Below, in pieces: positions 22,845-45,696 of a stretch of DNA of 64,000 nucleotides. The DNA is from an uncultured bacterium (GTDB taxonomy: Bacteria > Oederibacteriota > JAAXVQ01 > JAUVAV01), in contig CAVQBK010000003.1 of assembly GCA_963710755.1 (NCBI GenBank), positions 211,605 to 275,604 on the forward strand, written 5' to 3'. A program made the position numbers and the translations under genes. The notes below the pieces were generated by a model. That model was given only the letters and a program-made list of their open reading frames with translations. It made no database searches and was not told the DNA's origin. Numbering within the stretch: the stretch's first letter is position 1; each line of letters starts with the position of its first letter.

Positions 22845-22935
22845 AACCAGCGGAAGAGATGGGCACCACTTTTTCCCGTGGTCTTTGACGATCCAGCTTG
22901 CAATTTTATTTATGGAGAAGGCTGAGCCCGGACCA

Positions 22936-23026
22936 CTGCTCCCCCAAGAAAAGCCGAATCTCGGATGGAGGCCGTCCCTGGGCAGGAGGGGCTATTAAGC
23001 TGTTATGGTGTTAACGTCCTGTTGAC
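22936..23026. repeat. R2 repeat (copy 1): ~90-bp unit ending ATTAAGCTGTTATGGTGTTAACGTCCTGTTGAC
   Basis: Aligns by eye with 24644-24733 and partly with 28629-28691. Its 3' end resembles the MITE terminal inverted repeat. Confidence 0.55.
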
Positions 23027-23031
23027 TTCAA

Positions 23032-23409
23032 TCACGATCTGGCGAGACCACGTTCTAATATAGCAATCACTTCCGTATTCAGGCTGACGCCTTCCCGCTC
23101 TGCCTCCAAGGCAAGACGTTCATGCAGCGTTTTCGGAACCCGCACATTGAATTTTCCACTATATTTTTCCCGGGGCAATGGGATCGATCGTCCTCGCCTT
23201 AATTCTTCCTCCAGCCAAACCTCCTTGGCTTCGGCAATCATTTTTAACGCCTCTTCCTCCGTCTCACCTTGTGATACACAGCCGGGCAGATCAGGGATGA
23301 CCGCAACATAACCGCCGTCTTGATTATCCGGAATTAAATCCACACGGTACTTCAATTTAATATACTTTAAGAGATCGGCTTTGATATTCCTACCAGCCAT
23401 GGTTATCAT
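23032..23409 (-). CDS. hicB: HicB-family antitoxin (N-terminal HicB fold plus C-terminal RHH)
   Basis: 125 aa. C-terminal FNVRVPKTLHERLALEAEREGVSLNTEV is a ribbon-helix-helix. Overlaps the hicA stop by 4 nt. Confidence 0.75.
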   Translation of the reverse strand: MITMAGRNIKADLLKYIKLKYRVDLIPDNQDGGYVAVIPDLPGCVSQGETEEEALKMIAEAKEVWLEEELRRGRSIPLPREKYSGKFNVRVPKTLHERLALEAEREGVSLNTEVIAILERGLARS

Positions 23410-23648
23410 TCCTCTCCGCTAAGATAGCGCGCAAGCACAGTTCGCACTTGTTCCACGTAACAGCGCTTTACAGGATTATTCCTGGGCAATGTGATGGTGG
23501 TATATTTCTGATGTGAAAAAACCGTATGGCTGCCTTTGCCCTGTCTTTCCACATAGCCCAGTTTCAACAATACTTTGACAATTTCCGAGTACCTAATCTC
23601 TCTTCTCTTATCCATGACTGCAAATAAGAGTTTATCCAGCTTGGTCAT
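23406..23648 (-). CDS. hicA: HicA-family mRNA interferase toxin
   Basis: 80 aa with GKGSHTVFSH (the HicA GSHxxF motif). Confidence 0.75.
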   Translation of the reverse strand: MTKLDKLLFAVMDKRREIRYSEIVKVLLKLGYVERQGKGSHTVFSHQKYTTITLPRNNPVKRCYVEQVRTVLARYLSGEE

Positions 23649-23846
23649 GAAATGTCCTTCTTTTTATGGTACTATATTCGGTACTACATATCAATAGCTT
23701 AATAATTTAAATAGCCGCGCGCCAAAACAGGGATGCCGGCGCCAAGGTTTAAATTATTGGACCGGAAAACAGCAATTTTCTTTCGAAAAATGTTAATTTT
23801 TTCCCTTCCTCCCCGTCCCCCGTGCCTCCCTGTGAATAGTCCTTTT

Positions 23847-24164
23847 TTATCTTGTCCCGTTTTTTAATCTCTTCACTTCTTCCACCACCGCCATCTCTAT
23901 GACCGTCCGCAAGCTCCACACAATCTCATTGACCATGGTTAGATCCATCTCCTCCGGACAGGCCGCCACGGGGTTGGCCTCCATCATACATGTGTACTCC
24001 CCGGCCCAATGAAAGATAGGAATCTCCTTGAGCAGGATACGGTTGTCAATGGTCACCCGGGCTATGCCGATAATAGCGGATAAGTTCGAAGTGCTGGGGT
24101 AGATGGTGATGGAGAGATTGGGGGATTGGGGCATGGGGCGTTCCTTGTGTGGCTTATTTTCCAT
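23847..24164 (-). CDS. Small conserved hypothetical protein (copy 1 of a duplicated gene; paralog at 27828-28115)
   Basis: 105 aa. From MPQSPNL onward it is ~96% identical to the 95-aa paralog (4 aa differences). Divergently paired with an XRE-family regulator. Confidence 0.5.
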   Translation of the reverse strand: MENKPHKERPMPQSPNLSITIYPSTSNLSAIIGIARVTIDNRILLKEIPIFHWAGEYTCMMEANPVAACPEEMDLTMVNEIVWSLRTVIEMAVVEEVKRLKNGTR

Positions 24165-24252
24165 ATTATGCCAATCCTTCGGTTTAAGGTCAAGGTTTTT
24201 ATGTGGCTAACTTTCTGTTTGCTAATTTTCTGCAAGGAATTAGATTACTGCC

Positions 24253-24564
24253 ATGCCTACTAAGTCTAAAGAATCAAACATCATTCAAAAGAGCATGGGC
24301 CATGTCATTCGGACATTGCGTTTCAAGCTGAATCTTACCCAAAGTCAGCTGGCCGAAAAAGCCGGCCTGGACCGCACCTATATTGGGGATATTGAAATCG
24401 GCGGCCGCAATATCGCCCTGCGCACTTTCTTTCGCCTAGCTGCAGCCCTTGAGGTGTCGCCGGACAAGTTCATGAAATTATTGACCAAACAACTGGAAGC
24501 GGATCATAAGGGATTTGATTGGAAGAAACTCATGGAAAAAGATAAGTGGGTGGAGAGAGGGTAA
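24253..24564 (+). CDS. XRE-family (Cro/C1-type HTH) transcriptional regulator, copy 1
   Basis: 103 aa. HTH core LTQSQLAEKAGLDRTYIGDIEIG. C-terminal ~35-aa extension ends KDKWVERG, shared with copy 2 and with the fragment at 26571-26710. Confidence 0.7.
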   Translation: MPTKSKESNIIQKSMGHVIRTLRFKLNLTQSQLAEKAGLDRTYIGDIEIGGRNIALRTFFRLAAALEVSPDKFMKLLTKQLEADHKGFDWKKLMEKDKWVERG

Positions 24565-24643
24565 AGGTAGGTATCAAAATAACAGCATGTATTTCCCCTC
24601 GCCCCGTGCCAGCGGGGAGAGGTTGGGTGAGGGGCCCAGTATA
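24565..24643. repeat. Conserved 3' tail of the XRE gene with a G/C-rich imperfect hairpin (CCCCTCGCCCCG-TGCCAGC-GGGGAGAGG...GGTGAGGGG); also at 28549-28628
   Basis: Near-identical between the two XRE copies although the XRE coding regions have diverged. Confidence 0.5.
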
Positions 24644-24733
24644 CTCCTCCCCCAAAAAAGTCGAATCTCGGGTGGATGCCGTCCCTGGGCAGGAGGGGCA
24701 ATTAAGTTGTTATGTTGTTAACGTCCCGTTGAC
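24644..24733. repeat. R2 repeat (copy 2), ending ATTAAGTTGTTATGTTGTTAACGTCCCGTTGAC (MITE-like terminus)
   Basis: Aligns with 22936-23026. The last ~35 bp match the right end of the MITE family. Confidence 0.55.
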
Positions 24734-24772
24734 CCGTATTTCCGGCGCATTTTTTAAAGAAAGGGGCAAACC

Positions 24773-26269
24773 ATGAAAAAGTTAACTTATAGCCTGCTCT
24801 TATGTGGGCTTATATTGGATGGTTCCGTTCACGCTGAACTCGTCGAAAGAGGAACGCTCTCCGGCATCGTAACCACCTTTGACTCGGACAACGCAGGCGT
24901 TCTGTACCGAAACAGTGCCTCTGAGTATTGGCACCTAACTCGAGGCGGCGACGCCAAAAAACTTATCGCCAATTCACATTCTGAACGTGTGACATCGGTG
25001 TCACCTCAGCGCACTTACGCCCTTCTCCGCGGAATGGAAGGCATTCACATTGTGAAACTCAAAACCGGAGAAAAAATCCCCATAAAATTTAAGTTGAATT
25101 TTTCTCATCATGCTACCTGGCTTTTGGATGAAAGTAAATTCGCCTTTGTATCACGAAACAAGAAAGAAAGTGAACGCCCGGTTCTTTCTAATTTTACTGA
25201 AAATCTCTATCTTTTTAATGTTATTGAGTATGTCAAGGATTACAAGAATCGGTCACTCGCGGATATCGGTAATTATACAACAAAACTTACAACGTATACC
25301 AAAGGCTTTTGGATAGACAATCTCGCCTGGGCTACCGATCAGAAGAGACTTGCCTTTGGAACCTACCATCCGGAGAAAGTGAACAATCAATCTAAGTATT
25401 TTCATACGATAGAAGTTGTTGATATCTCCAGTGAAATGATTTCTACTGTAGCCAAGATGCCCAGCGATGGAATCTATTGGACCGGAAAGGATTCGCTGGC
25501 GTTTTTCGGCTATACCAAAGCAGGTGGTTGGACGCTCTACGCCAAAGAAGGCCAAGGGCCTGTAAAGCAACTCGTTCAGGGACGACCACACCATTGGGCT
25601 TTTTCCGAACAAGAGCGGAGTTATTTATACGACATGCCGCCTCACTCATCAAATCCGGGAAACGAACACTTTTGGAAGAATTTGGATAATAAAAGCATGA
25701 CCAGGATAGTAGGTGCTCTAAGGAATCCGATGTTATCCAAGGACGGAAAGTGGCTCTCATTCCAAGTCCCTGATACACTGGACAAAGCCATGGCCATCTT
25801 GGTTGAAACAAAACTCATCTCAGAGCGTGCCGTTAATGGGACAGTCAAGGTTGAGGACCTCATCCAAATACGTATGGGAGAAAGGCCATCAGTTTATGAC
25901 GTGAAGTCGTCACCCCTCCCTCAGCCATCGGTCACTTTTCGTTTGAATGATGTACAGGCCAATCAGGAATTCATCTCGTATGAGCTACATCTAAAGAATG
26001 AATTCAATGACAGGTACTTGCGTTTTAAATTTGTAAACCAACAGCAGATTGCCGGCAAAATTACAGACGCAACTGGCAATGAAGTCCTATCATGGCCGAG
26101 GATCGTTCAACCTGCCGTTTCAGCTTTCCTCGTGGGGCCGCATGAAACCAAGGTGTTCAGCGGACGTACCTCTTCCTCGTTGAAACCGGGTCAGACCTAT
26201 ACCGTCGCCTTTGAACTGATAGGATACCAAAACATTCCGACAGTCCAAACACAATTTACAGTCGACTAG
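24773..26269 (+). CDS. Secreted hypothetical protein (signal peptide; 498 aa), lower-GC
   Basis: N-terminal MKKLTYSLLLCGLILDGSVHA signal. No recognisable catalytic motif. Composition differs from the core genome. Confidence 0.5.
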   Translation: MKKLTYSLLLCGLILDGSVHAELVERGTLSGIVTTFDSDNAGVLYRNSASEYWHLTRGGDAKKLIANSHSERVTSVSPQRTYALLRGMEGIHIVKLKTGEKIPIKFKLNFSHHATWLLDESKFAFVSRNKKESERPVLSNFTENLYLFNVIEYVKDYKNRSLADIGNYTTKLTTYTKGFWIDNLAWATDQKRLAFGTYHPEKVNNQSKYFHTIEVVDISSEMISTVAKMPSDGIYWTGKDSLAFFGYTKAGGWTLYAKEGQGPVKQLVQGRPHHWAFSEQERSYLYDMPPHSSNPGNEHFWKNLDNKSMTRIVGALRNPMLSKDGKWLSFQVPDTLDKAMAILVETKLISERAVNGTVKVEDLIQIRMGERPSVYDVKSSPLPQPSVTFRLNDVQANQEFISYELHLKNEFNDRYLRFKFVNQQQIAGKITDATGNEVLSWPRIVQPAVSAFLVGPHETKVFSGRTSSSLKPGQTYTVAFELIGYQNIPTVQTQFTVD

Positions 26270-26350
26270 TTCCTGCTGGGCATATGTGGATATGGGACGA
26301 ACCTAACTAATGATTCCTGAGAAGTAAGTACCTTTTTTGAAGTCGAATAA

Positions 26351-26569
26351 GTTCTAGGGGACGTTAACAACATAACAACTTAATAGACAGTTCCAAATAA
26401 ATGCAGTTATAATTACACCATGCCACGACAAAAACGACTGAATTTACCAGGGTAACAGACATTTAAGTGAGCGCCAAAGAACAAGCGGTATCGAAATGGT
26501 TCGAAAAAGGAAGGGAGATTTGTGAACGAAAAAATATAAAGTTGTTAAGTTGTTAACGTCCCGTAGAAC
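26351..26569. mobile_element. MITE-like non-autonomous element, copy A (~219 bp, 21-bp TIRs GTTCTAGGGGACGTTAACAAC / GTTGTTAACGTCCCGTAGAAC)
   Basis: Near-identical copies at 37354-37572 and 38987-39204 in the opposite orientation. Terminal inverted repeats seen directly. No coding capacity. Confidence 0.7.
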
Positions 26570-26570
26570 A

Positions 26571-26710
26571 CTTTCTTTCGCCTAGCTGCAGCCCTTGAGG
26601 TGTCGCCGGACAAGTTCATGAAATTATTGGCCAAACAACTGGAAGCGGATCATAAGGGATTTGATTGGAAGAAACTCATGGAAAAAGATAAGTGGGTGGA
26701 GCGGGGTTGA
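26571..26710 (+). pseudogene. 3' fragment of an XRE-family regulator gene (third, truncated copy)
   Basis: Matches 24427-24564 of XRE copy 1 with a few substitutions. Starts 2 bp after the right TIR of MITE copy A, so the 5' part and the partner gene are missing. Confidence 0.65.
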
Positions 26711-26734: not shown

Positions 26735-27637
26735 TCAAACAAAATATCCGTCTTTCTTTAAAAACCGCTCATGTTTTTTCCTGTTACAATAAGGTGCATA
26801 AATTATTCCATCCCACTTCCATATTTTTTGATCATTAAATATAATGTCTATATTCATAGTTGTGTTTAATATTTTCTCCCACAGGTTTTTATAGGGATTA
26901 ATGCACAACGAAGATTGAAAGCAATCTTTTGCAGTACAAGTATTGTTAGCCGTATATTCATCAAAAGACTTCGAAACGATCCCCCCGATTATATCTATTA
27001 TTTTGATCGCTCTAGCTTCATCTGAATATTTTTCTGATTTTTTGGGAATAAAATAAGGGCCGCCCAGTATTACTTTTTTTTCTCGCGCCAAATCATGAAT
27101 CTGTACCTTGATTTTATCCTGATACTTACGGTCATTAATATCAATGAACCAATCCACTTTGGGGTTATTGAACAAATATGATCCTGGCTGATGGAAATTA
27201 AGTTTTTTTACAAAAGGAAATATTCTTTTAAATCCATATAAATAACCATTTTGTGCATGCCCGGCTATTATTGCTTTGTCTGTCAATTTTTGTCCGCATT
27301 CTACTTCTGATTTATTTAGAATATAAAAACCTAGAAGGCAAATATAGTCTCTGTTATTTCCCGATAAAAGCTCCGTAACAAAACCCTCAAGGGCACAAGG
27401 ATCGTCTTTAGCGACTTTCTTTAACTCAGACCATTTTCGCAAACGGGATTTAAGATATTTTCTTGAGCAGGAGCGGGCGATTTCAATGAATTTCTTCATC
27501 GATTCTTCGCCGGGAAAGCACGCCATTGAAATGATGTAATTTCTTGTGGCTCCAGAATAGGTTGTTCCCAAACATCCTGATTCATCGGAGATAACGATGA
27601 GTCGCAACTTTTTACCCCAAAAAAATAGCCCCGTCAT
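26735..27637 (-). CDS. DUF3800-family protein (AT-rich, 300 aa)
   Basis: N-terminal LRLIVISDESGCLG fits the DUF3800 hhYhDESG start. Strongly AT-rich compared with surrounding DNA. Confidence 0.45.
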   Translation of the reverse strand: MTGLFFWGKKLRLIVISDESGCLGTTYSGATRNYIISMACFPGEESMKKFIEIARSCSRKYLKSRLRKWSELKKVAKDDPCALEGFVTELLSGNNRDYICLLGFYILNKSEVECGQKLTDKAIIAGHAQNGYLYGFKRIFPFVKKLNFHQPGSYLFNNPKVDWFIDINDRKYQDKIKVQIHDLAREKKVILGGPYFIPKKSEKYSDEARAIKIIDIIGGIVSKSFDEYTANNTCTAKDCFQSSLCINPYKNLWEKILNTTMNIDIIFNDQKIWKWDGIIYAPYCNRKKHERFLKKDGYFV

Positions 27638-27827
27638 ACCCTCTCAAAGAGAGGTGAGTTCTCGACAAGGGCGAGAACCGACGGGGCTAATATAGGACAC
27701 CAATAATTTCTAAATAGAGTATATCTCAGCTTTTTATTGCCTACAAGTATAATTTTAAAGTTTTTATGATCCCCTTAAATTATCGGCATAATATTGCTGA
27801 TCCTAAATTTAATATGCCTATTCCCTT

Positions 27828-28115
27828 TTATCTTGTCCCGTTTTTTAATCTCTTCACTTCTTCCACCACCGCCATCTCTATGACCGCCCGCAAGCTCCAC
27901 ACAATCTCATTGACCATGGTTAGATCCATCTTCTCCGGGCAGGCCGCCACGGGCTTGGCCTCCATCATACATGTGTACTCTCCGGCCCAATGAAAGATAG
28001 GAATCTCCTTGAGCAGGATACGGTTGTCAATGGTCACCCGGGCTATGCCGATAATAGCGGATAAGTTCGAAGTGCTGGGGTAGATGGTGATGGAGAGATT
28101 GGGGGAGTGGGGCAT
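27828..28115 (-). CDS. Small conserved hypothetical protein (copy 2; paralog of 23847-24164)
   Basis: 95 aa. Nucleotide identity to copy 1 runs from ~27826 through the start codon (6 substitutions). Confidence 0.5.
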   Translation of the reverse strand: MPHSPNLSITIYPSTSNLSAIIGIARVTIDNRILLKEIPIFHWAGEYTCMMEAKPVAACPEKMDLTMVNEIVWSLRAVIEMAVVEEVKRLKNGTR

Positions 28116-28236
28116 AAAAATCTTCCTTTTGTTACTAATTTGCTACCAAGAGTATATCCAATTCATAAAAGGAGATCAAGCCAATTGTACATAACTTGCC
28201 ATTTACTTATTTTCTACAAACCTCTAATGTTGCCCT

Positions 28237-28548
28237 ATGCCTTCAAAATCTAAAGAGAAAAATATAATCCAAGTTACCTTAGGTCATATTATAAGGGACT
28301 TACGCTACAAGCTTCACCTTACTCAAGAACAGTTGGCCGAACGGGCTAGTGTAAACCGTTCCTATATTGCTGATCTTGAATTAGGCGGACGCAACATGGC
28401 CTTTCGCAATATTCTACGGCTATCCGTCGCCCTGGAAATCACGCCAGATAAATTATTCAAATTGCTTCTCAAACGACTTGAAACAGATCAAAAAGGATTT
28501 GATTTGAAGAAGTTTATGGAAAAAGATAAGTGGGTGGAGAGAGGGTAA
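28237..28548 (+). CDS. XRE-family HTH transcriptional regulator, copy 2 (diverged)
   Basis: 103 aa, ~60% identical to copy 1 over the HTH but with an identical last 11 codons and identical downstream tail. Confidence 0.7.
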   Translation: MPSKSKEKNIIQVTLGHIIRDLRYKLHLTQEQLAERASVNRSYIADLELGGRNMAFRNILRLSVALEITPDKLFKLLLKRLETDQKGFDLKKFMEKDKWVERG

Positions 28549-28628
28549 AGGTAGGTATCAAAATAACAGCATGTATTTCCCCTCGCCCCGTGCCAGCGGG
28601 GAGAGGTTGGGTGAGGGGCCCACTACAC

Positions 28629-28691
28629 TCCTCCCCCAGGAAAAGTCACGTATCAGGTGGATACCGTCTCTGTACACAATAGGTAATTAAG
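28629..28691. repeat. R2 repeat (copy 3, degenerate)
   Basis: CTCCTCCCCCAGGAAAAGTC... aligns with the 5' part of the other R2 copies and ends ...GGTAATTAAG. Confidence 0.4.
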
Positions 28692-29028: not shown

Positions 29029-32000
29029 TTAGGAGGCCAACCGAACTTCGCGAAATGCCTCGCTAAGCTGAAGCGCTGCACTTCGCCTGTCGCCCATGTC
29101 GACTAGAATGTCGAGAATCCGCAGGAACTTCTGAGCAAGAGCCATTTTCATGGGCGTATCACGATGTGCGAAGTACTGAACAAGCTCCGCAATACGTGCC
29201 GGAATGAACGTTCCATGCCAACCCTTTAGGTTGTCGGGTCCGTTATTAATAATCGAGAGCACTTGGTCCGCGAAGGCTTCTGTTGGATAGTTTGCCCTTG
29301 CTCGTTCACAGAGCGTCAAAAATGGGGCCATCACAGAAGCGGCCCATCCGCTGGCGCGAACGAATCGATTGATCAGGGGTAGGATACGGTCAATTTCTGA
29401 CCAGTCACCATTGACGTAGCGAGCAGCTAAGTCCGCGCCTTCGACGGAGACAAACATTAAAGTGCGAACAAGATCAGGCTGATCGAAACCTGTGAGTTCA
29501 CCACTCCGGTAAGTGTCGCGTTTGAAAACGGAATCCTGTAAAAGACGTTCAAGACACAGGTTCAGCATCACGATTGCATCGGCTGGAACGACCGGCGCAT
29601 CGTACACATAGGCGCAGACATAAGTACTCGCGAAGGGGGAAAGGAGAGCCCAGCAATTGTCGCCTTTGAGGTTCAGAATCGGGTCGAGGAAGCGGGTTTG
29701 AAAGTCGGCAAGCGGGATAAAACCAGCCACCTGGCCCAGCCGCGATCCAAGCGTATGCGTCCACTCGAAAATCTGGGTTGATGATTTATTTCGGCGTCCA
29801 GGCTTCACCCATGCTGGCTCATTCTTTTGATTGGTCCAGTCGAGAACACCAGCGAGGAAATCGAGAAGTGAGTTCATTGCGCTACTTTGCAGAACCTTAT
29901 CAAAGGGGATGTGCTTAAGAATTTTTGCTGCCTGCTTGGAATGCCAAATAACGTTTGGTTCACCCCATGCCTCAGCTGCGTCGGTAGCATCATCAGCATC
30001 GATATCTTCATAGCTTTGATGCCCACGTCGGCTCTTTCCTTGTTCGACTTTCACCCAGGCTGGAGGCGGTAACGGAAGGGAAGCCCATCCGCTTCCATTC
30101 TCGTAGAACTCAAGCGCCGCATCGATCGCCGCTTGCGCTTCACTCATCGAATGGAGTGCTTCATTGTGTTGACGGGCCTGGCTGCGCGGCCGTAGTGGGA
30201 CGTGACAGAGCGAAAATGCTAAGACCAGCGCCGCCCAAGTCAATCTGGGATCCTTGGACCAAAGCTTACACGATTCTTCAAGCGCGGCTAATGAAACAAT
30301 CTCCAATGGGTGCGCAATCAGCCCAAGAAGGTCGCGAATCGCACCGCGTTCCGCTGTACTTTCGCGGATATCCGCTGCGATGCCGCGCGCCACGTAGATC
30401 GCCTGATGCCATGGGATAATGGAACTGGGAGACTGCATCAAATCGGGCTTTTCTGGCAGAAGGATAGCACGTTTTAATACATCACGAGCCCACTTGAGAT
30501 CTTCTTGACTACACCCTTTTCGAAATGTGAGCGCGATGGCAGCGGTGGCGGCAACTGCACCTCGACGTATACCCAACTGCACTTCTTCGTTCTCATCTTT
30601 CGGTTGTTTGAATAAATCGTTGGCGTCAGCTTCTCTGGCCATTGCAATGGCATCTTGAATATCGTAACTGTCGTTGAGTCCCTTCTTTTCAAATGACTTG
30701 CACGCCCACGTCCACAAGCTGGTCAGATTAAGATATTTAGTTGCCTCTTCGACCCTGGCGATATTTTCAGGTTCAGCATCGGAAGGACTAACGTGGACAA
30801 TTGTTAGCTGGTCTGAATCCTTTTCCGTGCGGTAGGCCTGATAGTTGTGCGGGTCTGTAAACTCGGCATATTTAATGGCTTGTTCCATGAGGTGTTTCCT
30901 TACCTCTGGAATATTGCGCTGCTCCTCGTACTGAAAAGGCAAATTATTCTTGAAATCGAGAATCGCATTGCGGGTTTGGTTACGGATCGGTCCTGTCGCA
31001 AAAACAAACATAGGCACCATCCAACTAAGCTGCTTTTTGCGAACCGGCCTGGCATTTGCTGCTTGGATCGCATCAACGTGAGGTTTATCGGTGCGAGATG
31101 TAAAACCTATTAGATTAGTAGTCGGAGCAATATCTTGCTCCCATCGATGTTGGTCGGCAGCTAGCAAACGTTGTGAGATGAAGAGTGGCAATGTCGTTTC
31201 GGACACAGTTTCGGTATTGAGCGCAAGCATTGCCGCAATGCCTAGGATGGCGATGCATTCGTTTCCCTCTATGATTTGCTGGATTATCTCATCAACGGGC
31301 CGACCACGCTCAAGCTCGGTGAAGCACCATTCTTCGAGTGCCATAAACCCGCAGCCGATGGCATTGGGCGCCCATGTAGAACGAAACCAAAGATACTCCC
31401 GGTCAGTACCCCAGAATTTCTGGGTACCCCAGGGAAACCTCAGTTCAAGCGGTATAGGTGTGCCGGGGGGATTTTCATGATATCGTGAATAACAATGTAG
31501 TTGTCGCCACGCGGTCATCGCGTGATTGCATAGTTCCCGAAGGAGTCTCAAAGCCTCGGCGGGTGAAAACTTAAAAAGTGAGTAAAAGGGCTCTCGAAGC
31601 GGTGAAGGAGGCAAGAAACTTTGATGGTCATCGTGGATCGATAGCCTTTCACAGTCGTGGAAACTAAAATCACCTATGGCTCGCAGAGAATGTCCGAACG
31701 AAAGTGACATTTGTTCTTGGCGCGTGCGCTCAGCTTTCGGCTTGGCAAGGACTGTTTTGCGCCACTCGGCCGCACGATGAAGTTCCTGTCTTTCGCGGGC
31801 GACTTGCTCGTCTGGTAGTTCCTCTCGCAGGAACGCCAATGAAAGTTCGACGACCGACTGAGGGAGTGATTGGGCGAGGACAGGTGAGTAGACGATGATG
31901 TCGTGAAAAGCGTCGTCACGGATACGCTCTGAGTTGGCCACCCGCTGCAAGTAGTCGGCGGCAAAGATCGGCTCAGATCTCGACGATTTTAAGAGGAGTT

Positions 32001-37726: not shown

Positions 37727-38092
37727 TTAACTCTGAAAATAATGTTTATATTTTTTCGGCAACGCTTTTGATTTCGCGCCACCTTTTTTAATCTTTGAAA
37801 CTAATTTTTCAGAGGCATCTGGTTTCCTAATATGGCTTTTATTTGCTGACCAAGCTAAAATATCAGATAGTAATTCTTCTTTTACTCGAATATAATTCAC
37901 AAAGGATTTCTTTTTTACAAACGGATGTTCACCCGGTTCAATTATACAAGAACGGTCACATGGCCTATCTTCGCGTACTGTCGAAAGACTCACAAGTAAA
38001 CAATGTGTCTCGTTATTACAAACAACGAAAAACAGATGATGGGAAGAAGGACTGTCAGTAGGGATTAAAAAAGCAGCACCAATTAATGACAT
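37727..38092 (-). CDS. Hypothetical protein, candidate toxin partner of the Panacea-domain antitoxin (121 aa)
   Basis: Overlaps the upstream Panacea gene by 10 nt in an AT-rich context. Ends Lys-rich. No family recognised. Confidence 0.35.
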   Translation of the reverse strand: MSLIGAAFLIPTDSPSSHHLFFVVCNNETHCLLVSLSTVREDRPCDRSCIIEPGEHPFVKKKSFVNYIRVKEELLSDILAWSANKSHIRKPDASEKLVSKIKKGGAKSKALPKKYKHYFQS

Positions 38093-38640
38093 TCCAAAAA
38101 TTGCTTTGCTTTATTAAAGCGGTGAATGTCCTTTTCAATTTCTTTTATAACTTGTGTGGATTTCCCAACGGCTCTAAAAATATCTTCGATTTCAATGGGT
38201 TTTGATGAACCTTCGGGGTCTTGCCACTCTTTTAAATACCTATGACAGTATTTTTCAATTTGCCACTGATTAAAATGCCTAAACTTGTGTGAAACTTTTT
38301 CTATTAGCTCTATCTCTCTTTCGCTTAACTCTCCATCCTCACATTCATTATGAGCGGAAACGTTATAATTATTCCGCACTATATGTTTATGCCAATAGGA
38401 GTCTTCCCCTGGTTTTGGTTTATAATTAATAGTATCCAATATTTCACTTACAACTGGACCATGAGGCAATGAAAAATACCTGTCACAAGTAATAGGTGCT
38501 TCCCATTTTTTCAAAGCTTCCCTGTCTGCAATATATAGAAGCTTGATTAGCTTCATATAGTTAATACGCCCACCTTCTTTTTTAATAAAATGGCAGGCTG
38601 CTTGTGTTGCTTTTTTAATATCAAACTCGAATTGGATCAT
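38083..38640 (-). CDS. Panacea-domain (DUF4065, SocA-like) putative antitoxin
   Basis: N-terminal MKLIKLLYIADREALKKWEAPITCDRYFSLPHGPVVSEI matches the Panacea core (KLxKLLYxADRE...GxPxxx..Y.A...GPV). Confidence 0.6.
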   Translation of the reverse strand: MIQFEFDIKKATQAACHFIKKEGGRINYMKLIKLLYIADREALKKWEAPITCDRYFSLPHGPVVSEILDTINYKPKPGEDSYWHKHIVRNNYNVSAHNECEDGELSEREIELIEKVSHKFRHFNQWQIEKYCHRYLKEWQDPEGSSKPIEIEDIFRAVGKSTQVIKEIEKDIHRFNKAKQFLECH

Positions 38641-38986
38641 TTTAACCGCCCCTTATTTACCCGAATTCGGCCCAATTTCTAGTGAATTCGCCTACACTTT
38701 CATAATAGTTTCGTCTCAATAGTTGATATTGTTTAGACCCTGATTTGACTTTAAATACCGCTTAAGCGGTATTTAACTATATAGAAGTATAGCATACGCC
38801 CCGATATAAACACAACATATTGTCCAGCTCACCCAAGTTGCCTAAAGCCATTTGTCGTATCCAACCAGTATTAAACCCTTATAAATCAACGGTTTTCCCT
38901 CATCCAGAGTGCGCCTTCTCGACGCTATCCATCATGTCATCCTTTTTTGAATTCTCGCCCCTGAAGGTTCTGCACTGTAATGTTGG

Positions 38987-39204
38987 TTCTAGGGGACGTT
39001 AACAACTTAACAACTTTATATTTTTCCGTTCACAAATCTCCCTTCCTTTTTCGAACCATTTCGATACCGCTTGTTCTTTGGCGCTCACTTAAATGTCTGT
39101 CACCCTGGTAAATTCAGTCGTTTTTGTCGTGGCATGGCGTAATTATAACTGCATTTATTTGGAACTGTCTATTAAGTTGTTATGTTGTTAACGTCCCCTA
39201 GAAC
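38987..39204. mobile_element. MITE-like element, copy C (same orientation as copy B)
   Basis: Near-identical to copy B. TIRs GTTCTAGGGGACGTTAACAAC / GTTGTTAACGTCCCCTAGAAC. Confidence 0.7.
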
Positions 39205-39285
39205 ACAGACCCGGGTATCCGGGACGAGCCTAACTGATTAACTTAAGCTTCTTGTTCCCCACTATTTCCACGCCCTCGCCGGCTC

Positions 39286-39513
39286 TTATTTTTTATCCGC
39301 CTTGCCCGGCTGATCCCCTTGGGTGCTGATATGCACGCCGGGCACGGAAACATCGGTGTTGCCATTGTCATCGGTACTGATATGCACCCCGGGCAGGTTC
39401 ACGCGCACGCCCTGATCGGATACGTGGATGCCCACCATGCCATTGCTTTTTGAACCGCAGGCCGCGAGACCCACCAAACTCATCCCCACCAAAACCCACG
39501 CCATTATTTTCAT
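39286..39513 (-). CDS. Small lipoprotein with duplicated PGVHIST motif (75 aa)
   Basis: Signal peptide ending LAAC (lipobox). Internal repeat LPGVHISTDDNGNTDVSVPGVHISTQGD. Confidence 0.5.
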   Translation of the reverse strand: MKIMAWVLVGMSLVGLAACGSKSNGMVGIHVSDQGVRVNLPGVHISTDDNGNTDVSVPGVHISTQGDQPGKADKK

Positions 39514-39687: not shown

Positions 39688-41058
39688 TTACCGATCCCCC
39701 TGGACCGCCTCTTCATTCAGCAGGCCTTCAATATTCTCAACAACTAAAAAATTCAGCTCTTTGCCTCGTTTACGCTCCTCTAAAAACCCTTTCTTGGCCA
39801 GATCCAACAAATCCGACCGGGCCGTGCCCCAGGAGATGGCATTTGAATTTTGATAGTTTTTAATGGTATAGGCAAAGTCCTTATGGTTGATGGCATGATT
39901 TAACAGATCGATCTGCCGATAGTTTAAATCCTCTCTTCTTTTTATCCTGGTTCTGAGCCGATGATAGTTAACCACTTTCTTTTCAACATAGGCTTCCAGC
40001 GCTTCGATACTTTTTCGAATAATACTTAGATGATAATAAATAAAATAATTTAAATCTCCGCCGTCGCATTCGGTATTTAAATAAGCCCTTTTATATTGGC
40101 CTTTGGATTGATTGATCATTTCCGAAATGGAAACATATTCAAATAATTTATACTGCTTGCTAATCAGGTACCAATAAAACAATCCCCGGGCCGTCCGGCC
40201 GTTGCCGTCGGTAAAGGGATGGATATAACCGATCATAAAGTGGAGGATAATGGCTTTTATAACCGGGTGAACGAACTCCTGGTCGTCATTGGCAAAGTCA
40301 CATAAGGCCTGGATTCTCTGCTCCACTTCTGCATAAGGGGGCGGTATAAACAAGACTTCCTGGTCCGCATCATGTACATTAACCTGTTCTTTTCTAAAAG
40401 AACCTTCTTCCTCAGGATTTTCCAACAACCCGGCAGTTAAATCTTGATGTATTTTTTTAATTAATTCCGGGGAGAGCTTTTGGGTTTTATACTGCTTGGT
40501 TATTTTAATAATCGCACTATAGTTATTGATGATCATTTTTTCATCCTGCGTTTTTGGTTTCTTGCCGGCCTTGATCATTTCCTTGGCTTGTTTGCGCGTG
40601 GTGGCCGCGCCTTCTATTTGGGATGAAGTGATGGCTTCTTCCATCAACGCGTGTATGATTCTTTGTTTCAGCCATTCTTCCTTGTGGTCTTCTTCGCCGG
40701 CATTTTGAAAAACCATATTATCCGAAAGATGGATATCGACATAGTGGATCTCTTTTAAGATGCTGTTGGTTAATTTATAGGAAAAGGGGCTATTTTTAAT
40801 ATCCACCAAGCCCTTGGTTTCCAGACTCTGCGAACGTAAAAAAATTTTCATATAAAGCCATAAGGTTAAATGATCATAACTGCTTTCCGGTAAGGGACTA
40901 TTAGAGAACTTGTTCCAGGTCCAGTACTCTTCATAGGCTTGATTAAGAAAAATGCTTAGTTCTTTTTTCGCGTGAAGCTGTTTATGAATCGTCAATAACG
41001 TCATCATTAAATCATCATTGAGCTTTTCCACTATATTGGGAAAGTATGGTTTTTGCAC
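39688..41058 (-). CDS. Fic-family protein (class II, with inhibitory SxxxEG helix), 456 aa
   Basis: Fic motif HPFTDGNGRTAR. Inhibitory motif SSQIEG lies N-terminal to the core. GTG start. AT-rich. Confidence 0.8.
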   Translation of the reverse strand: MQKPYFPNIVEKLNDDLMMTLLTIHKQLHAKKELSIFLNQAYEEYWTWNKFSNSPLPESSYDHLTLWLYMKIFLRSQSLETKGLVDIKNSPFSYKLTNSILKEIHYVDIHLSDNMVFQNAGEEDHKEEWLKQRIIHALMEEAITSSQIEGAATTRKQAKEMIKAGKKPKTQDEKMIINNYSAIIKITKQYKTQKLSPELIKKIHQDLTAGLLENPEEEGSFRKEQVNVHDADQEVLFIPPPYAEVEQRIQALCDFANDDQEFVHPVIKAIILHFMIGYIHPFTDGNGRTARGLFYWYLISKQYKLFEYVSISEMINQSKGQYKRAYLNTECDGGDLNYFIYYHLSIIRKSIEALEAYVEKKVVNYHRLRTRIKRREDLNYRQIDLLNHAINHKDFAYTIKNYQNSNAISWGTARSDLLDLAKKGFLEERKRGKELNFLVVENIEGLLNEEAVQGDR

Positions 41059-41396
41059 TTTAATGCACCTTTTTCTATCAATTTATAAATTTTTAATACT
41101 TGTTAACACTATATCAACAAAATCTATCAATTTAAATAAAATTAATACTTTGTTATATTTAACTATTAATATTTATTAGTTTTTAAATTTTTGATACTTT
41201 GCTTGATGAATTTAGGATTAATTAAATTAAAAGACATTTTCATTTAATTAATTTTGGTTAAGTAAAAGAAGGCTTAATTATTAAGACGCTAATTAAAGGA
41301 ATCTCAGTGGATAGCACCAAAATTACCGCATATATTTTTATCCGGTCGAAAAATCGGTGGCTGGCGCCAAAACCCCGACTCTATGATTGGCCGTCC

Positions 41397-42554
41397 TCAC
41401 TCTACGCCTTCATTCAACAGCCCTATATACGCACTGTAGGCATATATCCTACCCCGCTGTTTACCGCTGATTTCTTTGACGATCCCCAAACGCTCAAGCT
41501 GATTAAAGGCCGACACAATGGTGGGGGTGGTCAGGCCTGTCAGCTTTTTCATTTTTTTAATCGATAAAATGAGATGTTGCTCCATTTCACGGTGGAGGCG
41601 GAGGGCCGTGGTGGCACCTCTGCCGGTCTGCTGCAGGGCTTGCCGGTCTTGATTAACCAAAGCCATTAGTCTCTTGGCTGTATCCACGGCATTGCCCGCT
41701 GTTTCAATGAGGCCATCGGCAAAGAAGTCGAGCCAACTTTCCCAGTCTCCTTCAAGGCGCACCTGCTCCAGCAACTTGTAATACATCTCTTTATGTTTTT
41801 TAAAGTAAAGACTCATATACAGCATGGGCTGGGATAGTATTTTTTCTGTATATAATAATAATGTAATCAGCAACCTGCCGATACGGCCGTTGCCATCCAA
41901 AAAGGGATGGATCGTTTCAAACTGCACATGGGCCAGCGCCACTTTGATTAAAGCCGGTGTTCTGGTTTCCGCATTATGCAGGTACTTTTCAAAAGCATCA
42001 AGACACTCCATTAATAATTCCGGCGGTGGGGGCACAAAGCCGGCATTGCCCGGTCTGGTGCCGCCCACCCAATTTTGACTTTTTCTGAATTCTCCGGGAT
42101 TTTTACCGGCCCCCCTTCCCTGGGATAACAGCACTTGGTGTATTTCCCGGATAAGACGCAATGACAGAGGAAACCCTTCTTCCATCCGTTTTAACCCATG
42201 ATTGAGTGCAGCGACATATTGAGAAACTTCCTCCACATCATCGATTGGTACCCCGGGCATGGCTTCCGATTCATAAATGAGCAAATCTGAAAGGGACGAT
42301 TGCGTGCCTTCGATCCTGGAGGACATCACCGCCTCTTTACGGATATAAGCATATATAAAATAGGTAATATCGGGCAACAAGATCGCCGCACTGTCGAGCC
42401 GTCCTAAGCTGATTAAAGCCTGATCCAGTTTCAGACGTAAACCATCGTCAATAGCCAATTTCTTAAAATCCGGTATGGGATAGGGGACAAAGGCCTTGAC
42501 CTGTTCATCATAAACAGTTGTTGTAATATATCGTCCTGTTACCTCTTTAGTCAT
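41397..42554 (-). CDS. Fic-family protein (class II), 385 aa
   Basis: Fic motif HPFLDGNGRIGR and inhibitory motif SSRIEG. Confidence 0.8.
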   Translation of the reverse strand: MTKEVTGRYITTTVYDEQVKAFVPYPIPDFKKLAIDDGLRLKLDQALISLGRLDSAAILLPDITYFIYAYIRKEAVMSSRIEGTQSSLSDLLIYESEAMPGVPIDDVEEVSQYVAALNHGLKRMEEGFPLSLRLIREIHQVLLSQGRGAGKNPGEFRKSQNWVGGTRPGNAGFVPPPPELLMECLDAFEKYLHNAETRTPALIKVALAHVQFETIHPFLDGNGRIGRLLITLLLYTEKILSQPMLYMSLYFKKHKEMYYKLLEQVRLEGDWESWLDFFADGLIETAGNAVDTAKRLMALVNQDRQALQQTGRGATTALRLHREMEQHLILSIKKMKKLTGLTTPTIVSAFNQLERLGIVKEISGKQRGRIYAYSAYIGLLNEGVE

Positions 42555-42736
42555 GACATCCTCTTAATTAAAGTATATCGGATTTAGATTTAATTAAATT
42601 TATTTTAGTAAAAGAAAGCTTATTTGGCAACTTATTAATTAAAGTATAACTGTTTTTCTTTTAATTAATAGAAAATAACGCTGGAGACGCCATATTTATT
42701 TGCCATGACTGTTCTAGTCAATAGGGTCGGGAAATT

Positions 42737-42973
42737 GGTGGCTGTTACCGGTTGCGCCTATAATTTTCCACGCTGCGGTCATAGGTCTTTTCCGCTTTGG
42801 CGTCAAAATAACAAGCCGGCAATTCGCCCCTCTTGCGGTGATAGTGAAGGCATTCACAGCAGAGGCCCTTGCGGGAACAGGGGTAGGAACAATTGCAGTC
42901 GTTTCTATTATGCTCTTGTTTGCATTCCACCGGCTGATCTCCCCTACAAAAATCTTTCTTCCATTCCGGCGTT
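42737..42973. repeat. 237-bp direct repeat, copy 1 (second copy at 45329-45565; 1 mismatch)
   Basis: Seen directly. Contains the Cys-rich mini-ORF on the minus strand. Confidence 0.8.
42745..42930 (-). CDS. Cys-rich small protein (N-terminally truncated copy; [21 protein letters not shown])
   Basis: 61 aa from a GTG start. Identical to the C-terminal 61 aa of 45337-45573 except R/M at one position. Confidence 0.35.
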
Positions 42974-43052
42974 TGATAACACGAATATGGATCTTATTTG
43001 ACCCTTCGAATGCCGGGAGCCTTCGCGCTTGGCATCCCTTAAAGCTGCTGCT

Positions 43053-44147
43053 TCATTTAATTTCATCTTTCACTTCCGGAACCCGTATAAATAAATTAAA
43101 CAACTTGTGATTGATATAATAAATCGAATTGCCCATCTTCTTTTTCTTTAAAAATCCACCATCTACCAATTCGTTTAAATATTTTGTGGCCGTGATCCTG
43201 GTTATGTTTAAATCCCGTTTCAGAAAATCTATTTTCGTATAGGGATGAAAAAATAAATTGTTTAAAAGATCCTGGCTATAAAAGCGGTATTTTTGGCGAA
43301 TCTCATGCTTGTAGGCCATCATTAATTCTCTGATTTTCAGGATGATGTGTATGGTTTGACGCGACGTTTGTTCAATCCCGGCAAGTATGAATAAAATCCA
43401 TTCTTCCCAAGCTTCCCGATCCCGTACGGCTTGTAAAAGACGATAATAATCATTTTTATTTTTAATAATGTATCGGCTGAGGTACAGCACCGGTATGTTT
43501 AATAACTTTTTTTGAACCAAATATAAAATATTGAGGATGCGTCCTGTCCTTCCATTGCCGTCATAAAAAGGATGGATGCTTTCAAATTGATGGTGAATCA
43601 CCGCCATCTTAATTAAAGGATCTATCGGCGAAATGTGATCATCATTGATATACTTCTCCAAGTTATTCATCAAACGCAAAATATCATCGGCATTTTGTGG
43701 TGGCGTATAGACCGTCTCACCGGTTTGATTATTTTTGAGTTCTGTTCCTGGAAGTTTTCGATATCCGGCCTTATGTTTAACCAATTCAGATTGAATTTCC
43801 AGTATAGTGTTGCTGGTCAACATGCCGCTCTTTTGCACCAACTGGAATCCTTTTTTCAATGCAATGGCATAATTTTGAACCTCTTTGGTTGCCGGACTGG
43901 TTTGCATCTCTTTAAAAAGACCAAGTTTAAACAATTCATCTTGGGTGGTAATAATATTTTCAATTGCAGAACTATCCTTAGCTTCCTGAAGGCCTAACGA
44001 ATTGATTAAAATATTTTGATTGGGTATGGTTTGCGAAATGCCTTTTAGTTCTGCTAAATATCTGTGCGCTCGGGCTGCTTTTTTTAATATCTCCTTTGAT
44101 TCAAGATCCGCTTTGGGCGGCAGATTATTTAACTGGTACATGGGCAC
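43053..44147 (-). CDS. Fic-family protein (class II), 364 aa
   Basis: Fic motif HPFYDGNGRTGR and inhibitory motif SSAIEN. Confidence 0.8.
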   Translation of the reverse strand: MPMYQLNNLPPKADLESKEILKKAARAHRYLAELKGISQTIPNQNILINSLGLQEAKDSSAIENIITTQDELFKLGLFKEMQTSPATKEVQNYAIALKKGFQLVQKSGMLTSNTILEIQSELVKHKAGYRKLPGTELKNNQTGETVYTPPQNADDILRLMNNLEKYINDDHISPIDPLIKMAVIHHQFESIHPFYDGNGRTGRILNILYLVQKKLLNIPVLYLSRYIIKNKNDYYRLLQAVRDREAWEEWILFILAGIEQTSRQTIHIILKIRELMMAYKHEIRQKYRFYSQDLLNNLFFHPYTKIDFLKRDLNITRITATKYLNELVDGGFLKKKKMGNSIYYINHKLFNLFIRVPEVKDEIK

Positions 44148-44562
44148 ATTTAACTCCTGGGCGCAGTTATGTATAAAAACATTAAAATTTTATATATTGT
44201 GCAATAAGTATGTATATTTTTAACCATTTATTATACATGCGATTGTAATTATCCTTTTTTATCAAGCATTTTATGGTACTTCATTTTTATGGTCTTATTG
44301 CCTTTTTGATCTGAATGTCAATAAAAAAGACGGTTTTTGAAATTGTAGAGGGGGTATCGGGGACGCTCTTAACTAATCCAACTTAAGCTTTTTGTTCCCC
44401 ACTATTTCCACGTCCTCGCCAATACCTTGCTGGACTGCCTCATCGCTTATCCCCAAATATTTCCCTATCCCGGTTTTAGAGTGGCTACCTGGGACGTCCT
44501 TCGATAATATGATATCCCTTGTGCAGTGCAATTTTGCAGTCGCGTGCAATAATAGCCGGCAC

Positions 44563-44928
44563 CTATTTCGAAGGAAGTAGTCTGGCCATTTGGCTGACCA
44601 ATTCAGGCACATGCTGCTTGGCTACTCTCCACAAAAGTTCATCTTCGATTTCTCCGTATTCGTGGGCAATGACATTTCTTTGAGCAATAATCTTTCCCCA
44701 TGGAATTTGAGGATTATTTTTTTGAAAGGACTTTGATACTTTATTGGCAGCTTCACCAATAATTTCAATATTTCTTTCTATCGCATTTCGAAGTTTTCTA
44801 TCTGAAGCATAATCATGATAGGTCTGATCAGCTATGAATTCCATAACCGCTTTCCCTGCATCCAGCATATCCCACAGGTAGGCCAGATCCCTCTCTTCAG
44901 GCTGCATAAATAACCTCTCGATTATCAA
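44563..44928 (-). CDS. hepT: HepT-like HEPN-domain toxin (DUF86)
   Basis: 121 aa. RNVIAHEY is the Rx4HxY HEPN motif. Overlaps the mntA-like gene by 32 nt. Confidence 0.75.
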   Translation of the reverse strand: MIIERLFMQPEERDLAYLWDMLDAGKAVMEFIADQTYHDYASDRKLRNAIERNIEIIGEAANKVSKSFQKNNPQIPWGKIIAQRNVIAHEYGEIEDELLWRVAKQHVPELVSQMARLLPSK

Positions 44929-45199
44929 GGATGGCTTGCCTGCGATAAGGATTCCTTATTCCTTTCTTGGATACCAGGTCGACTTTTTTCAAAAACAAGG
45001 CCTCCAGCTCATGCTGCATATCAATCCAATCGTATAGACTCCAGCCGGAATTATTGAGAAACTCCACCAGCACATCAACATCGCTGTTGGAGGTAAAATC
45101 GTCACGAAGAACAGAACCAAAAAATGAAAGTTCCGCTATCTTCCATTTTTGGCAAAAATCTCTTATTTTTTGGTGATCAATACTGATGTGAGGACTCAT
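44897..45199 (-). CDS. mntA: MntA-like minimal nucleotidyltransferase antitoxin
   Basis: 100 aa. GSVLRDDFTSNSDVDVLVEF is the GSx10DxD NTase motif. Confidence 0.75.
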   Translation of the reverse strand: MSPHISIDHQKIRDFCQKWKIAELSFFGSVLRDDFTSNSDVDVLVEFLNNSGWSLYDWIDMQHELEALFLKKVDLVSKKGIRNPYRRQAILDNREVIYAA

Positions 45200-45328
45200 T
45201 TTTATTCCTTAACCAAGTGATGAATTTATGATGACAGATATTTGATGACGAGGCAATATTTTATTGTTGTCTAAGCTGTCAATAACAATAGCATGCACCG
45301 GTTGAGATCCATCGGTATGAGAAAAACC

Positions 45329-45565
45329 GGTGGCTGTTACCGGTTGCGCCTATAATTTTCCACGCTGCGGTCATAGGTCTTTTCCGCTTTGGCGTCAAAA
45401 TAACAAGCCGGCAATTCGCCCATCTTGCGGTGATAGTGAAGGCATTCACAGCAGAGGCCCTTGCGGGAACAGGGGTAGGAACAATTGCAGTCGTTTCTAT
45501 TATGCTCTTGTTTGCATTCCACCGGCTGATCTCCCCTACAAAAATCTTTCTTCCATTCCGGCGTT
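45329..45565. repeat. 237-bp direct repeat, copy 2
   Basis: One mismatch relative to 42737-42973. Confidence 0.8.
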
Positions 45566-45573
45566 ATATCCAA
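45337..45573 (-). CDS. Cys-rich small protein (full-length copy, 78 aa; 9 Cys)
   Basis: [48 protein letters not shown]... ATG start present only in this copy. Confidence 0.4.
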
Positions 45574-45696
45574 CCTGGAACTATCGGTTGGCCGTGCAGG
45601 GTACAGGCAGGCCGGTACCCTGCAACAAGGTTTTTTTAAATGCTGCCCAAGGATGAGGTCGCACTTCTTTTTATTACACCCTGAACATTAATAGCA

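Follow-up and report, generated by a model that had tools for sequence, protein, structure and literature searches.

The interval between about position 21987 and about position 45565 of a 64,000-nucleotide stretch of DNA from an uncultured bacterium (GTDB lineage Bacteria; Oederibacteriota; JAAXVQ01; JAUVAV01) is probably a chromosomal hotspot island that consists of about a dozen separately acquired modules from varied donors and has no integrase. The stretch, called the window below, comprises positions 211,605 to 275,604 of the forward strand of contig CAVQBK010000003.1 (GenBank assembly GCA_963710755.1), and all coordinates refer to it. The island is about 23.6 kb long. It is bordered on the left by a cyoABCD-ctaA-like operon and on the right by DUF6485, beta-carbonic anhydrase, DUF2148 and Bat genes. 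The piecemeal accretion of modules, which the initial annotation of this DNA had preferred to a single integrative element, is supported by the range of the G+C content at third codon positions (GC3), by the divergence of the Fic genes, by the sharp boundaries of the cassettes and by the repeats that bracket modules. The gene content was re-annotated by profile searches against Pfam, PADLOC and NCBIfam.

The composition of the island differs from that of its surroundings. The GC3 of the island genes is 0.46±0.12 (n=22), compared to 0.66±0.06 for the flank genes (n=31). Both the mean (Mann-Whitney p=2e-7) and the variance (Levene p=0.009) differ, and the gene-to-gene fluctuation of the GC content described earlier is thus real and significant. 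Across neighbouring island modules the GC3 of genes ranges from 0.24 to 0.71. The check by GC and k-mer segmentation that had been proposed came out in favor of an island as well: the tetranucleotide distance is more than 2 standard deviations above the flank mean in every 2-kb window from ~21.5 to 45 kb, without a break. The gene of the Avs-like NTPase has a near normal GC content, yet its tetranucleotide signature is deviant.

The compositional left edge lies at position 21987, in the 4-nt overlap of the ctaA-like gene (GC 0.584, GC3 0.67) and the cyoE gene (GC 0.386, GC3 0.44). The composite island of ~23 kb that had been described between cyoE and the carbonic anhydrase gene therefore stands, with its deviant composition, but its left edge moves from 22850 to 21987 because cyoE itself has a low GC content (39%). 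The right edge is probably the DUF6485 copy that adjoins the beta-carbonic anhydrase gene (45697-46377), near 45329-45565.

The 'cyoE' gene (21987-22844, + strand) encodes a UbiA / heme O synthase-like protein that scores 159.6 bits against TIGR01473, under the cut-off of 210.3. Its best non-self homolog is 52% identical, and the homologs of 44-46% identity are stand-alone genes outside cyo operons. In a relative (contig L005, 10001-11797), the ctaA-like protein is fused to a UbiA domain, resulting in a protein of 598 amino acids whose counterpart in the window is 21046-22844. The UbiA part of this fusion is only 28% identical to the window cyoE. The low-GC cyoE may mark a site at the island edge where a housekeeping gene was replaced by a xenolog. 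Because each of the three strains seen has it, it is regarded as an older, fixed acquisition.

Immediately downstream of this gene the strains part. One strain variant (L003, 99.3% identical) follows the window for ~68 nt past cyoE and continues with 24 nt that are absent from the window. The other (L107, 97.2%) carries, 8 nt after cyoE, an end resembling S1, one of the solo element ends described below, followed by different DNA. Because both variants diverge just after cyoE, the left junction is a strain-level breakpoint marked by an S element. Related genomes with the same content had been named as the observation that would make the interval a conserved core region. The comparison, which covers only the left junction, speaks in part against such a core, because both strain variants depart from the window there. 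For the island itself, the Logan contigs L001 and L002 of run ERR11523667 match both outer junctions with 100% identity; they cover cyoE-S1-hicBA to position 23874 and the beta-carbonic anhydrase side to position 45536.

A scan of genome contigs for the ctaA-like gene gave four loci; besides a relative of 87% DNA identity, they are 56-63% identical and not syntenic. The search with the ctaA-like protein found no match between 64% and 100% identity, and the nearest relatives occur in metagenome-assembled genomes labelled Spirochaetia/Spirochaetaceae. For the beta-carbonic anhydrase, a scan of JGI metagenomes alone gave relatives of at most 49% identity and no shared synteny. One contig, L060, has cyo genes near a beta-carbonic anhydrase gene, in a different arrangement. 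The 90% clusters of the beta-carbonic anhydrase, DUF2148 and cyoD proteins contain the query only, and that of cyoC has one further member, encoded on the 3.6-kb contig of the 87% relative.

Modules of the island recur elsewhere in the company of other genes. Contig L105 matches 23808-24631, the segment with the orf105-XRE1 pair, at 95.5% identity, and the left neighbor there is AbiEii, not hicA. Contig L106 matches the MntA-HepT cassette (exactly 44535-45220) at 95% identity over a sharp stretch of 687 nt, and has other flanks on both sides. These flanks are an orf105-like/XRE pair plus an end similar to the solo end S3 on one side and FUR on the other; the S3-like end abuts the cassette boundary exactly. 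The YCII cassette (36753-37146) consists of a single gene (36775-37077, - strand, GC3 0.27). Its DNA is 90% identical to JGI contigs (Bacteroidales, Firmicutes, others) in a 400-nt alignment, equivalent to 394 nt of the window, that covers the gene only, and the copies elsewhere sit in unrelated contexts. The 90% protein cluster of YCII has 34 members, including proteins from Williamwhitmania and Eubacteriaceae. Full-length homologs of the Avs-like NTPase, 34-39% identical and annotated as NACHT proteins, are carried by proteobacterial plasmids, and the mutual identity of the three Fic genes of the island is only 22-30%. On the strength of these comparisons (the strain variants, L105, L106, YCII, Avs-like and Fic), the modules are regarded as independent units of transfer.

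The repeats of the window are concentrated in the island, where 21 of the 23 pairs from a self-BLAST of the 64 kb are located. The best defined family is that of a miniature inverted-repeat transposable element (MITE) of 222 nt with 35-nt terminal inverted repeats. MITE1 (26350-26571, + strand), MITE2 (37352-37573) and MITE3 (38986-39204) are 98-100% alike. MITE2 and MITE3 (98.6%) lie in direct orientation and bracket the Panacea pair; the GC content of the whole segment (37352-39204) is 0.35. The beginning of a Y1 transposase gene (MPRQKRLNLPG) survives in the interior of the element, and as single-stranded DNA the element folds with z = -7.2. An alignment of the copies revealed no target-site duplication common to their flanks, and a search of viral contigs for the terminal repeat gave no match. 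All seven matches of the terminal repeat in the window fall inside the island, with 0 expected, as do 20 of the 29 matches of a GGGACG core, the island being 37% of the window.

Solo ends of this type occur without the rest of the element. S1 (22935-23029, + strand) ends 2 nt before the stop codon of hicB at 23032, and S2 (24643-24736, + strand) lies between XRE1 and orf498. S1 is 90% identical to positions 24643-24733 of S2. A degenerate solo end, S3, follows XRE2, and further ends are present at other junctions, so that Y1-derived ends are found at about 10 of the 17 module junctions. Two relics of Y1 (IS200-like) transposase genes, one at 34981-35256 (- strand, Pfam Y1_Tnp 5e-5) and one at 34789-34971 (+ strand), are convergent and each is truncated after about 70 amino acids; the second keeps its upstream MITE-type end at 34724. 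No intact Y1 transposase gene is present within the window.

Long direct repeats surround several modules. The 133-nt 3' end of XRE1 (24423-24555) is repeated at 26569-26701 with 99% identity, with S2, orf498 and MITE1 lying in between. A 237-nt repeat containing the whole DUF6485 gene (42737-42973 and 45329-45565, 99.6%) brackets Fic364 and MntA/HepT. The 290-nt pair 23845-24134 and 27826-28115 is 98% identical within XRE modules whose remaining sequence is about 70-75% alike, and looks like a tract of conversion or recombination. A second junction sequence (GGTATCGGGGACG..CTTAACT..) is present in three + strand copies, at 39213-39280, at 44352-44420 and around 26293, which adjoin MITE3, the gap between HepT and Fic364, and MITE1, respectively. 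Two of these copies are 87% identical over 69 nt, including the tail of a lost open reading frame (ORF).

No anchor of an integrative element was found, in agreement with the initial annotation. ARAGORN reports 0 tRNA or tmRNA genes in the 64-kb window, and Rfam gives no match at gathering scores between 21000 and 47000. All 6.4 kb of island intergenic DNA, divided into 102 stop-to-stop segments, were scanned with Pfam in six frames. No remnant of an integrase, a recombinase or a DDE transposase was detected; the scan matched only Y1_Tnp and DUF6485, and a single IN_DBD_C hit with an E-value of 0.041 is no better than chance. Exact matches between the two borders reach 10 nt at most, compared to 8-14 nt in shuffled sequences. 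No recombinase was found in the flanks, and no conjugation, replication or phage structural gene was detected by Pfam among the called island genes.

Several points weigh against the accretion of independent modules. The evidence from the strain variants consists of only 17-24 nt at the ends of contigs. Contigs L105 and L106 are both short and derive from a single metagenome. The best relative, of 87% DNA identity, ends inside the ctaA-like gene and the others do not exceed 64%, so that the interval as a whole is not comparable. The direct repeats could also have arisen by unequal crossing-over or by duplication followed by deletion. The MITEs lack a target-site duplication and the window lacks an intact transposase, so that they may no longer be mobile. 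The internal junctions beside the repeats of 220-290 nt could hold assembly errors.

The island might instead be the remains of a single integrative element (an integrative and conjugative element, an integrative and mobilizable element, a prophage or a satellite), whose integrase and attachment sites were later lost and which later insertions and amelioration turned into a mosaic. The loss of the integrase is common in old islands. Furthermore, a homolog of orf300 lies beside a Phage_integrase gene in contig L102, and a plasmid homolog of the Avs-like protein is flanked by recombinases. Such an origin is unlikely, however, because the six-frame scan of the intergenic DNA detected no recombinase fragment, neither a tRNA nor a border repeat was found, Pfam recognised no conjugation, replication or phage structural genes, the GC3 of neighbouring modules spans 0.24-0.71, and three modules are found singly elsewhere with 90-95% identity, other neighbors and sharp boundaries. 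The same recurrence of modules in unrelated contexts, next to flank genes that have no relatives above 64%, makes it highly improbable that the region was inherited vertically, with an unusual composition but without any island. The repeats and MITEs are confined to the interval, and both strain variants diverge right after cyoE. What such conservation would explain is that the low-GC cyoE is kept in three strains and that run ERR11523667 reproduces both outer junctions; in addition, no close genome that lacks the interval could be shown.

It is also very improbable that part of the island is an artefact in which repeats of 220-290 nt misjoined pieces of different strains or organisms in the 1.47-Mb metagenome contig. 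The interval is rich in repeats and mixed in composition, and the Logan contigs of ERR11523667 break within repeats, at 23874 in the 23845-24134 copy and at 45536 in the 45329-45565 copy. Nevertheless, Logan contigs match both outer junctions with 100% identity, the orf498, orf300, Panacea, orf121, Fic456, Fic385 and MntA proteins are also recorded from Logan, and the length of the contig suggests that long reads were used. A different role for the repeats would be that of a platform for cassette capture, in which the Y1-derived ends are specific sites where a trans-acting HUH/Y1 enzyme inserts and excises modules, as in an integron but without an integrase. The frequency of such ends at module junctions, the S3-like end that abuts the MntA/HepT boundary exactly in L106, the S1-like end that marks the point of strain divergence in L107, and the small size and sharp bounds of the cassettes all agree with this mechanism. 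It is nonetheless distinctly unlikely. The junctions Fic456/Fic385, SdpI/YCII and orf300/orf95 have no such end, the ends are heterogeneous, both local Y1 copies are truncated and no intact gene is present in the window, and classical IS200/IS605 elements have hairpin ends and not 35-nt terminal inverted repeats. The insertion of MITEs in AT-rich spacers followed by ordinary homologous recombination gives the same pattern. In a broader form, equally doubtful, the Y1-derived ends would be working sites of integrase-free capture either by HUH/Y1 enzymes in trans or by repeat-seeded homologous recombination, with the orf105-like/XRE pair as a recurrent companion.

The gene content, the composite composition, the lack of an integrase, tRNA or attachment repeats, the layout of the repeats, the mobility of single modules and the strain differences at the left junction are observed; how the modules recombined, in which order they arrived and which genes serve in defence is inferred. 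Modules would enter and leave by RecA-type homologous recombination across short shared sequences, and would leave near-identical direct repeats around the newcomer, such as the 133-nt XRE1 3' end, the 237-nt DUF6485 gene and the 290-nt orf105 tract. The shared sequences may be portable MITE and solo ends, small conserved genes (DUF6485, orf105) and the 3' ends of XRE genes. The direct repeats could be footprints of the integration of a circle across a shared sequence or of unequal exchange, and the segments that they bracket would then be excisable. A second route might be provided by the activity of the Y1-derived 222-nt MITE family and its solo ends, or by recombination between their copies.

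Most of the gene list of the initial annotation was recovered by the profile searches: hicAB, two XRE modules, a STAND NTPase, an SdpR/SdpI pair, a Panacea pair, three Fic genes and a MntA/HepT pair, along with the MITEs and Y1 relics. The DUF3800 gene is supported indirectly only. The candidate anti-phage genes are those of the Avs4-like NTPase, the three SoFic-like Fic proteins and the DUF3800-like protein with an RNase H fold; the defence and toxin roles proposed for these and the other island genes are predictions from sequence.

The largest gene (29029-34365, - strand) encodes an Avs4-like STAND/NACHT NTPase of 1778 amino acids. Residues 292-590 match the NCBIfam Avs4 model (3.7e-28, 97.4 bits compared to a cut-off of 1500 bits), and the NTPase core is also matched by PADLOC Avs4 (1e-19) and, weakly, by Pfam AAA_16. 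Residues 2-269 do not correspond to the N-terminus of the Avs4 model and match PADLOC DUF626_VIII (2.2e-26), the model of an accessory protein of type VIII retrons (PMC7736814). The label 'serine esterase' was not adopted for this region, since only the first 249 of the 474 positions of the retron VIII model are matched. The N-terminal region has no Pfam match even at E<=5, and a single-sequence AlphaFold model of this domain was unusable (predicted local distance difference test score, pLDDT, 42). The C-terminal 1,180 amino acids have neither a Pfam match (E<=5) nor a PDB match, and a PDB sequence search with the protein returned none. By analogy with its family, the NTPase would sense infection and activate the N-terminal effector. 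In the Polaromonas plasmid pPNAP05 (L108), a homolog of this protein stands alone, with recombinases and a DUF4160/DUF2442 pair as neighbors.

The three Fic genes are arranged in tandem on the - strand. Fic456 (39688-41058; PADLOC SoFic 2e-51) has a Fic domain, a weak Fic_N match and an extra N-terminal region of ~130 amino acids. Fic385 (41397-42554; PADLOC SoFic 2e-116) contains Fic_N and Fic, and Fic364 (43053-44147; PADLOC SoFic 3e-119) contains Fic_N, Fic and SoFic-like_C. All three belong to class II and carry an intact HPFxDGNGRxxR motif plus the inhibitory motif SxxxE(G/N). Their scores against the NCBIfam SoFic equivalog (in descending order 384.8, 135.6 and 67.3 bits) are all below the cut-off of 550 bits. 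The possibility that they are recent tandem duplicates was rejected, because their mutual identity is as low as 22-30%. Class-II Fic proteins are expected to act as AMPylators. A 44-nt AT-rich repeat with TTAATTAA motifs occurs at 41208-41251, 42554-42597 and 42625-42668, in spacers of 24-26% GC; one copy is located downstream of Fic456 and two are upstream of Fic385. These repeats around Fic385 may be shared operator or promoter elements.

Several pairs of small genes are of the toxin-antitoxin type. The hicB (23032-23409) and hicA (23406-23648) genes, both on the - strand, overlap by 4 nt. HicA matches Pfam HicA_toxin (1.7e-7, 31.7 bits, cut-off 27) and HicB its own Pfam family (2.3e-14, 53.5 bits, cut-off 21) as well as HicB_lk_antitox. 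In the MntA/HepT cassette (44535-45220, - strand), the genes of MntA (44897-45199; NTP_transf_2 1.4e-15, 57.9 bits; PADLOC PDC-S09) and HepT (44563-44928; HepT-like 1.1e-24, 86.9 bits) overlap. Both characteristic HEPN/MNT motifs, Rx4HxY and GSx10DxD, are present as AQRNVIAHEY and GSVLRDDFTSNSDVDV. HicA and HepT are presumed RNases that would be restrained by HicB and MntA, respectively. The Panacea antitoxin gene (38083-38640, - strand; SocA_Panacea 1.1e-22, 81.5 bits, cut-off 25.7) is overlapped downstream by orf121 (37727-38092, - strand), which encodes a candidate toxin partner of 121 amino acids that the Panacea protein would neutralise. Orf121 has no family match in Pfam (even at E<=5), PADLOC or NCBIfam. 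Apart from these pairs, the ArsR-type SdpR gene (35395-35781; HTH_5 3.7e-15) and the SdpI gene (35778-36440; SdpI 5.7e-19, DUF1648 5.6e-16) are on the + strand.

The two XRE modules share a common plan. Module A (23808-24706) contains orf105 (23847-24164, - strand), which is divergent from XRE1 (24253-24564, + strand), plus a tail. Module B (27826-28691) contains orf95 (27828-28115, - strand), divergent from XRE2 (28237-28548, + strand), plus the degenerate end S3. The modules are 80% identical over 874 nt and 98% in the orf105 part. The orf105 copies of the window are accordingly 98% identical, whereas their XRE partners are only 66% identical in protein. Both XRE1 and XRE2 match the PADLOC model of a restriction-modification (R-M) control protein (7e-16 and 4e-15), and orf105 has no Pfam match even at E<=5. 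In every case the orf105-like gene (90-105 amino acids, without a family) lies beside a divergently oriented XRE gene that resembles an R-M control protein, and the pair recurs beside differing cassettes, namely hicAB, AbiEii and MntA/HepT (the window; L105, 620-1337; L106, 1-441).

Between these modules lie orf498 and orf300. The product of orf498 (24773-26269, + strand) is a predicted secreted protein, as its N-terminus reads as a signal peptide, and has no family in Pfam (even at E<=5), PADLOC or NCBIfam. The product of orf300 (26735-27637, - strand) belongs to a divergent branch of DUF3800-like proteins; it has an RNase H-like fold, and its N-terminus carries a DESG motif. It has no direct match to Pfam DUF3800 (PF12686) at E<=5 and is assigned to this family via intermediate homologs and the RNase H2-like fold. 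A profile built from orf300 and two homologs finds only 35 representatives among 1.84 billion proteins, and DUF3800 is matched by 9 of the 29 relatives that were scanned.

The remaining island genes encode a lipoprotein (39286-39513, - strand) and two DUF6485 proteins (42745-42930, Pfam DUF6485 1.7e-5, and 45337-45522, both - strand). The ORFs listed on the + strand at 42705-43001 and 45330-45656 are not genuine; the true genes are the two DUF6485 copies on the opposite strand. Orf79 (44373-44612) and orf75 (27766-27993) are probably not genes.

The flanks of the island contain gene clusters of their own. An extracellular contractile injection system (CIS) cluster extends from about 4300 to 16442 and includes a weak match to a CIS tube protein (4303-4983), an AAA ATPase (5447-7615), Pvc16_N (7612-8781), the CIS sheath (11274-13235) and an eCIS_core protein (13947-16442) of lower GC (0.51, GC3 0.54). 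On the other side, BatA/BatD-type genes (47090-51915) are followed by type IX secretion cargo with Por_Secre_tail at 52037-53377 and 57313-60834, including a C25 (gingipain-like) peptidase of 1173 amino acids. Por_Secre_tail is a sorting domain known chiefly from Bacteroidota and their relatives. A gene at 53522-56758 (1078 amino acids) has no Pfam match and a deviant tetranucleotide signature. Its GC skew is very strong (-0.34 at 55.5-56.5 kb, compared to +0.32 in the neighboring gene at 52-53 kb), and it has internal repeats at 56153-56292 and 52538-52685/55924-56059. The acyltransferase gene at 61704-62477 has a GC content of 0.455, below that of its neighbors.

Defence hotspots without an integrase have been described before, and the island leaves current concepts unchanged. 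Hotspot #37 of Escherichia coli has no detectable mobile element in 68% of cases (PMC10121019), and the core defence hotspots (cDHS) of Pseudomonas aeruginosa likewise occur without one (PMC10250203). The island shares with such hotspots a fixed site between housekeeping genes, diverse defence and toxin-antitoxin genes, the lack of a mobile element, an integrase or a tRNA, and, as far as the left junction shows, differences between strains. A defence island is recognised by the clustering of several defence or toxin-antitoxin systems, and those present here are SoFic (three times), Avs4-like (once) and MntA PDC-S09 according to PADLOC, and HicAB, Panacea and HepT/MntA according to Pfam. Unlike the known hotspots, the island belongs to an uncultured lineage without close genomes, its occupancy was compared at the left junction only, and a Y1-derived MITE family as well as long direct repeats are found at its junctions. 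TRNA-anchored genomic and pathogenicity islands have similarly atypical GC and oligonucleotide content, accessory genes and relics of insertion sequences, but the present island lacks their tRNA, integrase, flanking direct repeats and uniform single-donor composition.

The individual components also deviate from their prototypes. The large NTPase resembles Avs4 (AVAST type 4) in its homologous central NTPase region, in being encoded by a single large gene of ~1,800 amino acids with a long C-terminal region, and in its defence context. Its score, however, is far under the cut-off, its N-terminal domain is of the retron VIII accessory type and its C-terminus is unmatched. The Fic proteins have the Fic_N/Fic/SoFic-like_C architecture and the catalytic and inhibitory motifs of SoFic, and two of the three genes match nearly the whole PADLOC profile, but all fall below the equivalog cut-off, the tandem copies are mutually distant and Fic456 has its N-terminal extension. 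The 222-nt element is similar to MITEs and to elements derived from IS200/IS605 in being non-coding and multicopy, in containing the 5' end of a Y1 gene and in showing no visible target-site duplication. Classical IS200/IS605 elements have subterminal hairpins instead of terminal inverted repeats, whereas the element of the window has 35-nt perfect-type terminal inverted repeats. As in composite transposons and integron arrays, repeats bracket single modules (MITE2 and MITE3 around the Panacea pair), and small sharp-edged cassettes lie side by side. Unlike those systems, the bracketing elements contain no transposase, there is no IntI and there are no attC-type sites, and the gene orientation is mixed.

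The island shows how defence and toxin-antitoxin genes can accumulate at one chromosomal spot without an integrase. The footprints of this process are unusually legible, because direct repeats surround modules, a toxin-antitoxin pair is bracketed by MITEs, and the same cassettes are found elsewhere with other neighbors. The island also provides candidates for experiments: an Avs-like NTPase with a retron VIII-type N-terminus, a very rare DUF3800-like branch, a putative toxin beside a Panacea antitoxin, and the recurrent orf105-like/XRE pair.

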